64,000 nt of DNA, taken from the NCBI GenBank assembly GCA_029210565.1, contig JARGFQ010000002.1, positions 89,246 to 153,245 on the forward strand, written 5' to 3'. Positions 2,697 to 3,180 of the stretch are shown in pieces. Position 1 is the first letter of the stretch. Each line of letters starts with the position of its first letter. The notes beneath the pieces are model-generated. The model searched no databases, was not told where the DNA came from, and saw only the letters and a program-made list of their open reading frames with translations. A program made the position numbers and the translations under genes. This DNA comes from Bacteroidales bacterium. GTDB taxonomy: Bacteria; Bacteroidota; Bacteroidia; Bacteroidales; VadinHA17.

Positions 2697-2769
2697 GCGG
2701 GAATAGCTCAGTTGGTAGAGCACGACCTTGCCAAGGTCGGGGTCGCGAGTTCGAGTCTCGTTTCCCGCT
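2697..2769 (+). tRNA. tRNA-Gly (GCC)
   Basis: GCGGGAA/TTCCCGC acceptor stem, D-arm AGCTCAGTTGGTAGAGC, anticodon loop TTGCCAA, T-loop TTCGAGT. CCA not encoded. Confidence 0.97.
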
Positions 2770-2779
2770 CAAGAATCGA

Positions 2780-2802
2780 GGAAGCATCAGGCTTCCTTTT
2801 TT
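2780..2802 (+). terminator. Rho-independent terminator after tRNA-Gly
   Basis: GGAAGC-ATCAG-GCTTCC followed by T6. Identical copy at 3158-3180. Confidence 0.75.
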
Positions 2803-2805
2803 AAT

Positions 2806-3087
2806 ATGGGCTACTGGGTGTATATAATCTATTCCCCATCGACGGACAGTTACTATAAGGGTCAGACTGATGATCTGGTAGACCGATTATCAAGGCATAA
2901 TAATGGCTGGGAGAAGACAACGAAGTCAGGGGTTCCCTGGCTGCTGGTATGGGAGTGCCAGAAGCCGGACAGGTCATCTGCTGTCAGGTTGGAAAGGAAA
3001 TTGAAGAATCTGTCGAAAGAGAGGACCAGGCAATTTATTCTGAAGTATACTTCTGGGGTCGCGAGCCCTGACGATACTGACCTGTAA
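2806..3087 (+). CDS. Small GIY-YIG nuclease family protein (93 aa)
   Basis: YWVYIIYS...YYKGQT...RLSRHNNG...TK...PW...A.RLERKLK pattern. ATG at 2806; the ORF-track start overlaps the tRNA. Confidence 0.88.
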   Translation: MGYWVYIIYSPSTDSYYKGQTDDLVDRLSRHNNGWEKTTKSGVPWLLVWECQKPDRSSAVRLERKLKNLSKERTRQFILKYTSGVASPDDTDL

Positions 3088-3180
3088 TGGTCAGTATGTC
3101 AGGGTGCTGACCGCTTGCGCGTCAGCATTCGAGTCTCGTTTCCCGCTCAAGAATCGAGGAAGCATCAGGCTTCCTTTTTT
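3055..3180 (+). repeat. Duplicated tRNA-Gly 3' half plus terminator, interrupted by a 62-bp double hairpin
   Basis: 3055-3065 equals 2739-2749 and 3128-3180 equals 2750-2802 (exact). The insert is 3066-3127. Confidence 0.95.

Follow-up and report, generated by a model that had tools for sequence, protein, structure and literature searches.

A candidate homing-type element with a minimal GIY-YIG nuclease and a double hairpin at a tRNA-Gly gene of a Bacteroidales bacterium

Introduction

SegB is a phage protein with additional DNA-binding parts, and the Seg and I-Tev enzymes have DNA-binding domains. As a GIY-YIG homing nuclease, SegB is widely tied to phage tRNA genes of many isotypes, and it acts through double-strand breaks and homologous recombination via short homology between tRNA and ORF ends, which generates tandem arrays of tRNA plus nuclease (PMC13096335). 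Transfer RNA genes also host genomic islands and prophages that insert within a loop, keep the gene intact by carrying a replacement tRNA end and leave a partial copy on the other side (PMC9897764). In fungal mitochondria, double-hairpin elements (DHEs) are described as short and potentially mobile units of two adjacent hairpins (PMC10085805). Finally, the Slx1 family of nucleases includes YhbQ and YazA (PMC7017083).

In this study, we analysed a 64,000-nt stretch of a Bacteroidales genome (contig JARGFQ010000002.1; hereafter the window), in which a small GIY-YIG gene lies between an intact tRNA-Gly gene and a partial tRNA copy that is interrupted by hairpins. In the literature searched, we found no account of small GIY-YIG genes accompanied by split tRNA copies in Bacteroidota; supplements and subscription journals lay outside that search, and one may exist there. 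The reading that we favour, with a probability of about 0.58, is that the locus harbors a homing-type selfish element closest to phage SegB, which brings along a substitute for the tRNA 3′ end together with a terminator of its own and whose hairpins serve as a cis-acting site or immunity mark.

Results

Layout of the locus

The original prediction placed at this locus a tRNA-Gly gene with its terminator, a 93-aa ORF, a partial tRNA copy and a 62-bp insert, and ARAGORN, Rfam, Pfam and repeat comparison recovered each of these parts at the expected position. The features are as follows.

2678-2685, + strand: TAnnTTTG-type motif, 11 nt 5′ of the tRNA (read from the sequence)
2697-2770, + strand: intact tRNA-Gly(GCC) (ARAGORN; Rfam tRNA, 69.1 bits)
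2750-3127, + strand: complete unit, 378 bp (56-nt repeats spaced 378 start to start)
2778-2798, + strand: intrinsic terminator of the element type, copy 1, a terminator-like hairpin (terminator and fold reading)
2806-3087, + strand: GIY-YIG nuclease ORF P0001, 93 aa, catalytic domain only (ORF translation; Pfam)
3055-3065, + strand: left piece, 11 nt, covering the final base of the anticodon stem, the variable loop and the 5′ strand of the T-stem (repeat comparison)
3066-3104, + strand: hairpin 1, with a 7-bp base CCCTGAC/GTCAGGG, an unpaired G, a 9-bp variable inner stem and a 6-nt loop (fold)
3105-3127, + strand: hairpin 2, with a 7-bp base TGCTGAC/GTCAGCA, adjoining the T-loop (fold)
3128-3183, + strand: T-loop to tRNA 3′ end, trailer and terminator (stem 3156-3176), copy 2 (repeats)

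The unit lies exactly between tRNA positions 53 and 54 and runs from the T-loop through the tRNA 3′ end, trailer, terminator, ORF and short tRNA piece to the double hairpin. Full and partial tRNA copies stand as direct repeats at its two ends. The tRNA copy had been described as exact, and the match from the variable loop to the terminator stands: the 11-nt repeat (2739-2749 and 3055-3065) is 100% identical, and the 56-nt repeat (2750-2805 and 3128-3183) has one mismatch at its far end. The insert (3066-3127) occupies exactly 62 nt between the T-stem 5′ strand and the T-loop of the copy, with no base lost or doubled. In other members of the family, the left piece measures 6-12 nt, and in the related genome G116 it shares a T-to-C change with the tRNA of that genome.

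On the basis of trailer comparison with relatives, we attribute the part of tRNA-Gly that begins at T54 and ends at its 3′ terminus (2750-2770) to the element. The T-loop and the 3′ strands of the T-stem and acceptor stem are provided anew by the 5′ end of the unit, and tRNA-Gly is therefore whole and functional, with the original 3′ part of the tRNA apparently displaced downstream and disabled by the hairpins. The window thus contains one full unit plus the first 56 nt of a second, and we interpret 3128-3183 as the beginning of this second unit, which was truncated and became joined to the end of a convergent downstream gene. In G076, the second unit is cut within its ORF ahead of the same downstream sequence, and extra bases are kept after this terminator in G060, G122 and G098.

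The motif at 2678-2685, which we take to match the Bacteroidetes -7 consensus, is likely the sole promoter for the tRNA and, via read-through, for the ORF. A sigma-70 scan found no promoter between the tRNA terminator and the ORF start codon; the lone match on the + strand (2801-2828) overlaps the ORF start. The long upstream ORF (38-2554) is presumably mutS. Downstream, none of the 9 ORFs in 3180-14602 matched an integrase or transposase family, which agrees with the earlier statement that no integrase is nearby.

The T-loop and anticodon-loop sublocations described by Williams in 2002 are reportedly the classic crossover sites of integrases, a point in favor of regarding the repeats as attL/attR scars of an integrase-driven island in the tRNA T-loop that was mostly deleted later, with the ORF as a passenger. 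In addition, direct repeats of a complete and a partial tRNA are a hallmark of integrase-mediated integration (PMC9897764). We nevertheless consider this origin very improbable, given that no integrase lies within 11 kb and that the bare unit of approximately 340-380 bp recurs in all three sets of loci described below, including arrays of 9 units. Moreover, the hairpins part the T-stem strand from the T-loop, and therefore no core-type symmetric site exists.

An assembly artefact or chance duplication was also considered, since the genome of the window is a draft of 45 contigs and N-runs lie beside the repeats in some related loci. We give this explanation practically no weight. The architecture recurs in many independent assemblies with diverged sequence, the assemblies G076 and G116 and the metagenome contig L135 among them, the 56-nt copies are distinguished by one base and by their flanks, and the fold of the insert has a z-score below -8.

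The nuclease

P0001 matches the Pfam GIY-YIG family (PF01541) with 48.8 bits (cut-off 22.6; E 9.1e-13) over residues 3-73 of 93. Residues Y6, Y17, G19, R27, H31, N32, E63 and N68 are invariant in 9 clade members, and we take the invariant Y, Y, R, H, E and N to be the GIY-YIG catalytic set, including the two tyrosines of the GIY and YIG motifs; judged from the sequence, the catalytic residues of P0001 are intact. The sole PDB matches, both weak, are to UPF0213 structures, 1zg2 (BH0048; E 6.3e-6) and 1ywl (EF2693; E 0.012), and no NCBIfam model matched. These comparisons place P0001, as far as sequence kinship indicates, in the Slx1/YhbQ (UPF0213) branch with a single URI domain, and we infer from this kinship that P0001 may cut branched or hairpin DNA in a structure-selective manner.

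Pfam detected no second or DNA-binding domain, and the tail of the protein is encoded by the tRNA piece and the hairpin: the final 11 codons pass through the tRNA piece into hairpin 1, in the loop of which the stop codon (3085-3087) falls. Across units, the nuclease measures 80-95 aa. The gene is free-standing between host genes, outside any intron or intein, and no near-identical ORF is present elsewhere in the genome of the window. The best metagenome relative is 68% identical, and matches in the phage collection, in Rhizobium and Ralstonia phages, reach just 35-37% identity. A phage or plasmid origin was rejected: the match inspected (H1, from a Rhizobium phage) is not beside a tRNA gene, and plasmids gave zero matches.

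The hairpin insert

The 62-nt insert folds as two abutting hairpins with a DNA folding energy of -23.3 kcal/mol on the + strand and -24.1 kcal/mol on the - strand (z of -8.3 and -9.0, respectively), and 0 of 200 shuffled sequences fold as well. Across members, the base of hairpin 1 is conserved and its inner stem varies on both sides, and hairpin 2 is the most conserved piece phylum-wide. In an alignment of inserts, 95.3% of cells were paired compared with 82.6% in shuffles, a count that leans toward the structure model because the alignment was fitted to it; in the same fitted alignment, both sides change in 14 of 24 pairs, and none of 500 shuffles reached this number or 95.3% pairing.

The alternative most directly concerned by these data is that the hairpins and the tRNA remnant act as RNA, whether as the 3′ end of the nuclease mRNA (stability or processing), as a tRNA-like small RNA, or, in the boldest form, as a scaffold with a tRNA-derived guide of approximately 20 nt that brings the nuclease to tRNA-gene DNA. 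This role would suit a nuclease without a targeting domain, and it is consistent with several features of the loci. The ORF and tRNA are co-oriented at every locus with a tRNA, neither sequence reading nor the sigma-70 scan revealed a separate promoter, and the module always lies inside the predicted transcript, between ORF and terminator. A consensus three-way junction is predicted, in which the T-stem closes the two hairpins and the T-loop, and the loops of hairpin 2 are frequently GNRA-like.

However, the 43 inserts contain 1009 Watson-Crick pairs and 21 G-T pairs, and a share of just 21 G-U pairs in 1030, together with equal folding of the opposite strand (summed energies of -1476 kcal/mol for the + strand and -1484 kcal/mol for the - strand), is unusual for a selected RNA structure. 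A comparison of the strands intended to separate RNA from DNA revealed no asymmetry. Being near-perfect palindromes with equally good folds on both strands, the hairpins look more like DNA than RNA structures, and the conserved stem-base sequence and the two-fold symmetry of an insert with inverted terminal repeats fit a DNA that is bound by protein. No Rfam covariance model matched 3055-3183 or the modules of other members, where real tRNAs alone were matched. The copy at 3055-3147 was called as a tRNA by neither ARAGORN nor Rfam; it has no D-arm, no anticodon arm and no 5′ acceptor strand, and without this strand it cannot fold as a tRNA. We therefore regard an RNA role as doubtful, and the earlier suggestion of a tRNA-like structured RNA is not borne out by stems that are almost purely Watson-Crick, by strand-equal folding or by the Rfam and ARAGORN results.

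Two further candidates were rejected. A CTGACGA string recalls the core of a hammerhead ribozyme, but it is not conserved in relatives and the Rfam search was empty. A tRNA intron or permuted tRNA was dismissed on sequence reading, since the copy has no 5′ half and no intron fold.

Distribution across Bacteroidota

The original prediction of a selfish-looking unit of approximately 380 bp, built around a stand-alone GIY-YIG nuclease and tied to tRNA genes, holds beyond the window. The ORF has a tRNA next to it in 26 of 29 family loci and in 30 of 34 loci from named Bacteroidota genomes, and the two genes share a strand in every such case; the tRNA ends no more than 150 nt from the ORF start in 26 of the 34. 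Of 24 metagenome loci, many of them on short contigs, 12 have a tRNA called by ARAGORN. A disabled copy of the local tRNA with element-type hairpins comes after most ORFs, and the check proposed at the outset was borne out: homologues are flanked by duplicated tRNA parts with hairpins at the same T-loop position. An exact-match script recovered a downstream tRNA copy at 12 of 26 loci, a count that is low because 15 identical bases were demanded; sequence reading and patterns show more. Under a strict pattern, hairpin 2 abuts the T-loop in 9/30, 19/34 and 13/24 loci of the family, named-genome and metagenome sets, respectively, and any element-type hairpin was found with looser patterns in 21/30, 29/34 and 23/24. 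The unit measures approximately 340-380 bp across the family.

The host tRNA genes of the module include Gly, Thr, Ala, Leu, Pro, Asp, Ser, Arg and His, and the flanks match the local tRNA. Identical variants of the inner stem recur at different tRNA types and in different classes. The flanks thus appear to be local and the hairpins the element's own, as judged from the sequences. The ORF tree, with 26 rows, contains three clades that correspond to the type and position of the hairpins, namely, the T-loop, the anticodon arm and the D-loop, and the sister classes of the window's clade use the anticodon arm or D-loop instead of the T-loop. The window's clade (12 rows; support 96/96) has the double hairpin at the T-loop in 10 of the 10 rows with a readable downstream region. 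The match between ORF clade and hairpin type could reflect co-inheritance rather than function, since kin share labels.

The replacement tRNA 3′ end and own terminator, the stub of a second unit, and the sister classes at the anticodon arm and D-loop are observations that go beyond the original prediction.

These distributions bear on whether two separate parasites have been conflated, that is, whether a palindromic miniature element with 6-bp terminal inverted repeats enters stem/loop junctions of redundant tRNA-like DNA, alone or via an enzyme encoded elsewhere, and the GIY-YIG ORF represents a homing gene, free-standing and unrelated, whose activity happens to produce such copies. The terminal inverted repeats are present in 37 of 43 inserts at each end, and a GIY-YIG match is missing upstream in 11 of 17 further modules, such that the module may be able to survive or spread when no nuclease accompanies it. 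Additional hairpins of this type occur at other junctions and nested within hairpin 2, and a full-length disabled tRNA-Leu at locus L143 bears three hairpin insertions. In the genome of the window, hairpin repeats of related motif are dispersed at 39 sites and a GIY-YIG gene of this family occurs once.

Several observations argue against such a separation, which we regard as rather unlikely. The hairpin type tracks the ORF clade, and in the loci read, the hairpins are confined to displaced tRNA copies beside these ORFs or their remnants, with none at random intergenic sites. The spacer of an ORF-less module at locus L060 retains a string resembling the ORF end, as would be found in a deletion derivative. 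The double hairpin of the window type is single in its genome and undispersed: a loose CTGAC..GTCAG pattern matched 392 sites compared with 140 for a reversed control, and these are not real hairpins, and stricter patterns recovered the window copy only. On this single occurrence, we reject for this hairpin type the REP-like cargo that had been suggested. The other earlier suggestion, a recognition or immunity tag, fits hairpins that occur only in displaced copies and a hairpin type that goes with the ORF clade.

Presence, absence and decay among near relatives

At the locus of the window, near relatives differ by one unit exactly, contain units in tandem or retain relics without an ORF, and the allele comparison proposed at the outset thus yielded filled, unit-less and relic alleles. 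Among 20 loci of the genus, 18 are readable past the tRNA; 9 of these have the element-type terminator and 9 have unrelated terminators, and an ORF is present in 2 of the former 9 and absent in 7. Filled sites are found in the window, G116 and G076, and relics in G140, G060, G122 and G098, with G140 retaining a decayed second tRNA end. G137 (locus L034) equals the window minus one unit, with an identical right junction. In G116, the terminator type of naive relatives follows the last displaced copy, and the element's type follows the intact tRNA. Presence/absence polymorphism is therefore accompanied by decayed copies at one locus among close relatives, as is looked for in Seg-like elements.

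Tandem units occur in G076, G116 and the metagenome contig L135, and the array in G087 consists of an intact tRNA-Val, 9 units and then a diverged displaced copy with a different terminator. No near-identical pair of ORFs was found at different sites, and with the best metagenome relative at 68% identity, recent transposition is undocumented.

Discussion

Proposed mechanism

Under the favored reading of a SegB-like homing element, cleavage and its position, homing or mobility, transcription and the role of the hairpins would be connected as follows. The nuclease would be made via read-through from the tRNA promoter and would break or nick the tRNA-gene DNA at the stem/loop junction that houses the unit, probably by reading a DNA shape, such as extruded hairpins or a cloverleaf-like fold, like its structure-selective relatives. 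Homologous recombination of the host would then copy the unit from an occupied to an empty allele, and unequal exchange could also build the tandem arrays, as shown for phage SegB. We propose that, with the double hairpin in place, the displaced copy no longer has an intact site and that the element would therefore not be cut out; the double hairpin may also be a handle that is bound by the nuclease. We further propose that single-strand annealing after a cut could not delete the unit because the long duplication lies only 3′ of the break.

Certain aspects of the locus are not easily accommodated by homing in its plain form. The intact tRNA at the left junction is the naive target sequence, and simple disruption of the homing site therefore gives no immunity; the homing model needs tolerated re-cutting or the recognition of something else. 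It is difficult to see how a protein that lacks a DNA-binding domain could cut one particular tRNA gene in a sequence-specific way. In addition, plain homing does not account for both flanks of the hairpins turning local after a move to a new tRNA type.

A more speculative proposal, which we consider possible although unlikely, is that the units, at approximately 340-380 bp among the smallest autonomous mobile elements known, form a new class of their own with an 80-95-aa GIY-YIG protein that lacks a DNA-binding domain. The target would be found via nucleic-acid structure and base pairing instead of the reading of DNA sequence by a protein: the element end, consisting of a short tRNA stem strand and the double hairpin, would pair with the complementary stem strand of a folded tRNA-gene strand, which would be cut at the stem/loop junction, by analogy with IS200/IS605 ends and attC sites, or a transcript of the module would act as a guide. 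If targeting depends on pairing, retargeting would need only a change of the 6-12-nt stem piece, which would explain the presence of one hairpin lineage at a dozen tRNA types with local flanks.

Significance

If confirmed, the units would extend the bacterial mobilome by a family of minimal mobile elements that spans the phylum and would provide a chromosomal counterpart of the link between phage SegB and tRNA genes, drawn from a YhbQ/YazA/Slx1-like branch with a largely unknown role in bacteria. They would also offer natural systems for studying site choice by a nuclease without a targeting domain, an element that lives harmlessly inside an essential gene, and palindromic hairpins that protect or mark DNA. 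For annotation, the units yield hairpin-split tRNA fragments, tandem repeats and contig breaks beside tRNA genes in Bacteroidota assemblies, and those who annotate such genomes should be able to identify them. Should targeting by pairing prove true, a compact programmable nuclease would be of interest.

Comparison with known systems

The closest likeness is to SegB, with which the locus shares a free-standing GIY-YIG gene beside tRNA genes and arrays of the same shape. However, P0001 is encoded on a bacterial chromosome, belongs to the UPF0213/YhbQ branch and consists of a catalytic domain of 93 aa, and the domain with which Seg-like enzymes bind a long DNA target is absent from it. Replacement tRNA ends and hairpin-disabled tRNA copies are, within the available part of the SegB report, undescribed for SegB loci (PMC13096335).

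Like an integrase island, the unit lies within a tRNA loop, restores the gene and leaves a partial copy. It differs in its size (378 bp compared with 9-23 kb or more), in having one 93-aa ORF and no integrase, in its tandem arrays, and in the interruption of the displaced copy by the element's hairpins.

Among YhbQ and YazA proteins, the likeness lies in sequence kinship to the UPF0213 structures 1zg2 and 1ywl and in single-domain size (about 90-105 aa). Those proteins are encoded by single-copy housekeeping-type genes, and no report of them at tRNA genes was found in the literature searched, whereas the family described here is patchy, multi-copy, arrayed and often decayed.

The Allomyces DHEs are reportedly located near a mobile endonuclease ORF that duplicated a gene end. 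DHEs are mitochondrial, GC-rich and located in intergenic or rRNA sites, whereas the hairpins here are at fixed tRNA stem/loop junctions and tied to a specific nuclease clade.

The ends of IS200/IS605 elements and integron attC sites presumably resemble the module in their imperfect palindromes, conserved unpaired bases and a flank that possibly pairs with the target, and we assume that the junction of a circular or tandem form would equal the three-way structure observed here. Neither the unit nor its surroundings (9 ORFs, 3180-14602) encodes an HUH transposase or integron integrase. The systems in question use HUH or tyrosine recombinases that conserve bond energy, whereas a GIY-YIG hydrolase cannot join DNA alone. 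The unit itself has the hairpins, the unpaired G and strand-neutral folding.

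Structure of the element at the tRNA-Gly gene

The element in the window brings a new end for the tRNA gene that it occupies, and the original end is displaced downstream. In our reading, the window contains one complete unit and then the initial 56 nt of another, which are joined to the end of a convergent downstream gene.

Features of the tRNA-Gly locus (window coordinates)
2697-2770, intact tRNA-Gly(GCC), called by ARAGORN and Rfam
2778-2798, terminator-like hairpin after the tRNA
2806-3087, GIY-YIG ORF of 93 aa (product P0001)
2739-2749 and 3055-3065, direct repeat of 11 nt (repeat finder)
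2750-2805 and 3128-3183, direct repeat of 56 nt with one mismatch, start-to-start spacing 378 (repeat finder)
3066-3127, insert of 62 nt in the second tRNA copy, exactly between the 5′ strand of the T-stem and the first base of the T-loop

When folded as DNA, the insert forms two abutting hairpins (-23.3 kcal/mol, z -8.3 on the + strand; -24.1, z -9.0 on the - strand), and the loop of hairpin 1 contains the stop codon of the GIY-YIG ORF. The original prediction had described a nuclease ORF between an intact tRNA-Gly and a partial copy split by a double hairpin, with no integrase nearby. Because the tRNA, the ORF, the repeats, the insert and the missing integrase were each found again, this observation was correct in every detail, including the coordinates, both repeats and the double-hairpin insert. 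Integrase and transposase families were absent from the nine ORFs scanned at 3180-14602, and we consider it very unlikely that the locus is the remnant of a degraded integrase island.

The convergent ORF just downstream (206 aa, 3180-3800, - strand) has a stop codon that overlaps the end of the second repeat copy. It matched no Pfam family at E 1e-5. A spacer of ~90-130 nt with a terminator-like hairpin, which is present in the relatives G060 and G122, is missing from the window before this ORF. Farther along, an ORF at 11812-12438 (- strand) combines a helix-turn-helix domain with a nucleotidyltransferase domain of the Pol-beta type, an architecture that is frequent in toxin-antitoxin-like pairs.

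The nuclease and its homologues

P0001 matches the Pfam GIY-YIG family over residues 3-73 (48.8 bits, E 9e-13). No other Pfam family scored above its curated cut-off, T5orf172 giving a sub-threshold match only, and no NCBIfam model was matched. The protein is too short to hold a DNA-binding domain. Eight residues (Y6, Y17, G19, R27, H31, N32, E63 and N68) are invariant across nine members of the clade, and just two solved structures are related to it, both of UPF0213 proteins (E 6e-6 and 0.012). According to a review (PMC7017083), YhbQ and YazA belong to the family whose founding member is Slx1, a structure-selective nuclease. Where ORF ends read into the tRNA piece and hairpin, similar tails of the form G-V/I-A-x-P-D/G occur (window 3049-3087; loci L003, L004, L005, L008, L009, L013, L018 and L020), and not only in T-loop elements: the mirror-image elements at Pro genes, with a stop inside the D-loop of the tRNA, have them too. 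These tails may be a coincidence of tRNA sequence or an extension that is used.

Only one copy of the ORF is present in the window's genome. With a limit of E 1e-5, homologues occur in 63 of the 101 sampled genomes of the taxonomic family, this genome counted, often several per genome and often ~337-340 bp apart. Close homologues extend across Bacteroidota (Rikenella, Bacteroidales, Sphingobacteriales, Chitinophagaceae, Cyclobacteriaceae, and Flavobacteriaceae, including Maribacter and Winogradskyella). Of the 29 family loci examined, 26 have a called tRNA next to the ORF, on the same strand in every case. Among the wider Bacteroidota genome loci, 30/34 have a co-oriented tRNA and 26/34 have a tRNA end within 150 nt of the ORF start; a tRNA was called at 12 of the 24 metagenome loci, many of which are short contigs.

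The proposed link between this nuclease and interrupted tRNA sequence was upheld by the homologues collected, for duplications of tRNA parts with hairpins at the T-loop occur throughout the window's clade. The order there is fixed: the intact tRNA, a trailer with terminator, the ORF, a 6-12-nt tRNA copy from just 5′ of the T-loop, hairpins 1 and 2, and the sequence from the T-loop to the tRNA 3′ end. This design is found at Gly(GCC), Gly(CCC), Thr, Leu, Pro, Ser, His, Ala and Asp genes, with the hairpin bases conserved and the flanks matching the local tRNA. Under a strict pattern, hairpin 2 abuts the T-loop in 9/30 family, 19/34 genome and 13/24 metagenome loci; looser patterns, which can give chance hits at a few per cent of loci and which missed some variants seen by eye, detect an element-type hairpin in 21/30, 29/34 and 23/24, respectively.

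Two sister classes differ in target position. At Met and Val genes, the displaced copy starts in the D-loop and continues to the 3′ end; in place of its anticodon arm stands one hairpin, which has a second motif. At Pro genes the arrangement is a mirror image, in which a 5′ tRNA fragment with a double hairpin in its D-loop precedes the ORF and the intact tRNA, and the ORF stop falls within the D-loop of the latter. A tree of 26 ORF cores has three clades that coincide with the hairpin types and positions, the window's clade comprising 12 rows (support 96/96). This match is suggestive of cognate pairs and falls short of proof, because related rows share labels by descent. On a metagenome contig (L143:380-580), a full-length disabled tRNA-Leu copy downstream of the ORF carries three inserted hairpins: a single one in the D-arm region and a double hairpin at the T-loop.

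Filled, unit-less and relic loci

Alleles in related genomes bear out the proposed unit, since filled, unit-less and relic loci were found (G116, G137 and G140). Eighteen of the 20 orthologous loci in the genus are readable past the tRNA; nine have the window-type terminator and nine an unrelated one, and the ORF is present in two of the former and absent from seven. In G116, an element-type terminator stands behind the intact tRNA; at least two units farther on, the final displaced copy has the terminator type of the ORF-less relatives L044 and L050. The right-hand junction of G137 is exactly that of the window with the 378-bp unit absent, and G140 retains a decayed second tRNA end and terminator, the ORF and hairpins being gone. 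A few bases resembling the ORF start remain after the terminator in G060, G122 and G098, and G076 has a second unit that is cut inside its ORF. With the window read as a full unit and the stub of a second, we infer that the locus of G060, the closest relative (flanks 95% and 87% identical), was formerly occupied rather than naive. That the duplication is an assembly artefact is also very unlikely, and more so than an integrase island.

The tRNA-Val array of G087 has nine units, nearly identical to one another, with the intact tRNA at the left and a diverged last displaced tRNA end with a different terminator. These units are 337 bp long and lie behind one tRNA-Val (L131, G087:C3:87700-92300, reverse strand 880-4000); the recurrence of unit variants in a higher-order pattern suggests that the array grew by amplification in multi-unit blocks.

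A covariance model found 17 further hairpin modules, with a GIY-YIG match just upstream in six and none in 11. The ORF-less modules follow an intact tRNA and a 4-30-nt spacer and precede a terminator, and in one of them (L060) the end of the spacer resembles the last codons of the ORF. That the hairpins are an independent miniature element is in our judgement unlikely. The window's genome contains four relics outside the window; the one at tRNA-Ala(TGC) lacks the ORF and belongs to the same element type.

Relics in the window's genome
C1:147419-147600, tRNA-Ala(TGC): terminator, hairpin 2 alone abutting a copy from T-loop to 3′ end, second terminator
C21:3314-3720, tRNA-Asp: hairpin-split partial copy ~320 nt downstream
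C45, ~17797-18230, minus strand, tRNA-Lys: followed by 132-nt tandem partial copies (3′ end and terminator), with an N-run inside
C3:79316, tRNA-Met: preceding fragment with the second hairpin motif in place of the anticodon arm

ORF-less tRNA-Leu modules in five genomes of three genera (L067, L082, L083, L085-L087) keep their own T-stem pair; their T-stem differs from that of the adjacent intact tRNA-Leu and the acceptor strand is shared, which suggests an old module or movement between Leu isoacceptor genes.

Nature of the hairpins

Across 43 distinct inserts, 1009 Watson-Crick pairs were counted versus 21 G-T pairs, and the summed folding energies of the two strands are -1476 (+) and -1484 (-) kcal/mol. 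In an alignment fitted to the model, a fit that leans towards structure, 95.3% of the cells are paired versus 82.6% in shuffles, 14 of 24 pairs have changes on both sides, and 0/500 shuffles reach the observed pairing values. The 7-bp bases of the stems have a conserved sequence; the inner stems vary while their pairing stays perfect. Hairpin 1 has one unpaired G after the base, to which an unpaired base on the opposite strand of hairpin 2 corresponds; therefore, the insert is one asymmetric hairpin present twice in opposite orientations. A 6-bp inverted repeat bounds the insert (37/43 at each end), and hairpins of the same kind are also nested in hairpin 2 and located at other stem junctions of displaced copies. 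Because inner stems of identical sequence turn up at several tRNA types and across bacterial classes, the hairpins are a property of the element lineages and the flanks a property of the target. The scarcity of G-T pairs, the nearly equal energies of the strands, the inverted symmetry and the lineage-bound stems point to recognition at the DNA level, as a cruciform or as one DNA strand of either polarity, and away from an RNA fold under selection. An action of the hairpins as RNA would accord with the universal co-orientation of ORF and tRNA, the lack of a promoter of the ORF's own and a predicted three-way junction; however, their palindromic purity and strand symmetry argue against it, and we regard it as quite unlikely. 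No Rfam family was matched by the modules of the window or of other members.

Short TCCCGA..TCGGGA palindromes occur at 39 dispersed sites in the window's genome, none inside the window (nearest, C22:84512 and C22:171191). Some are parts of longer REP-like composite repeats, some are a recurrent 16-nt palindrome upstream of ORFs starting ATGATGAAAAAA, one falls within 23S rRNA and another is a terminator of tRNA-Gly(CCC). They may be related to the hairpins of the Met/Val/Pro-class elements.

Comparison with known systems

The kind has precedents: free-standing GIY-YIG genes are known from tRNA genes, as are tRNA genes that an inserted element rebuilds. The association of GIY-YIG with split tRNAs was not described in the full text searched, mostly outside subscription journals and supplements, nor was the combination of a catalytic-domain-only nuclease, a replacement tRNA end, hairpin-split displaced copies, three target positions and phylum-wide spread.

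The closest studied case is SegB of the T-even phages, a GIY-YIG homing nuclease. According to its description (PMC13096335), SegB is widely associated with tRNA genes and cuts tRNA-containing DNA, after which recombination at short homologies between the tRNA and the end of segB yields tandem [tRNA + segB] arrays. We propose the same logic for the window element. The tRNA gene would be broken at a stem/loop junction, and an occupied copy would serve as repair template, so that the unit would home into naive alleles and arrays would grow where the allele is already occupied. The replacement tRNA end would render the insertion harmless, and the hairpins would destroy the site in the displaced copy. 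The unit would not be removable by annealing after a cut, because the sequence 5′ of the break is duplicated only as a 6-12-nt stub.

A bolder reading would bring three points under one account: site finding by a nuclease with no further domain, tolerance of the rebuilt intact tRNA although it is a target, and the local match of both flanks at a new tRNA type. In this reading, one strand of the tRNA gene would be folded, and the stub together with the hairpins may base-pair with its complementary stem strand and so set the cut, as the ends of IS200/IS605 elements or attC sites do. We hold this idea to be doubtful.
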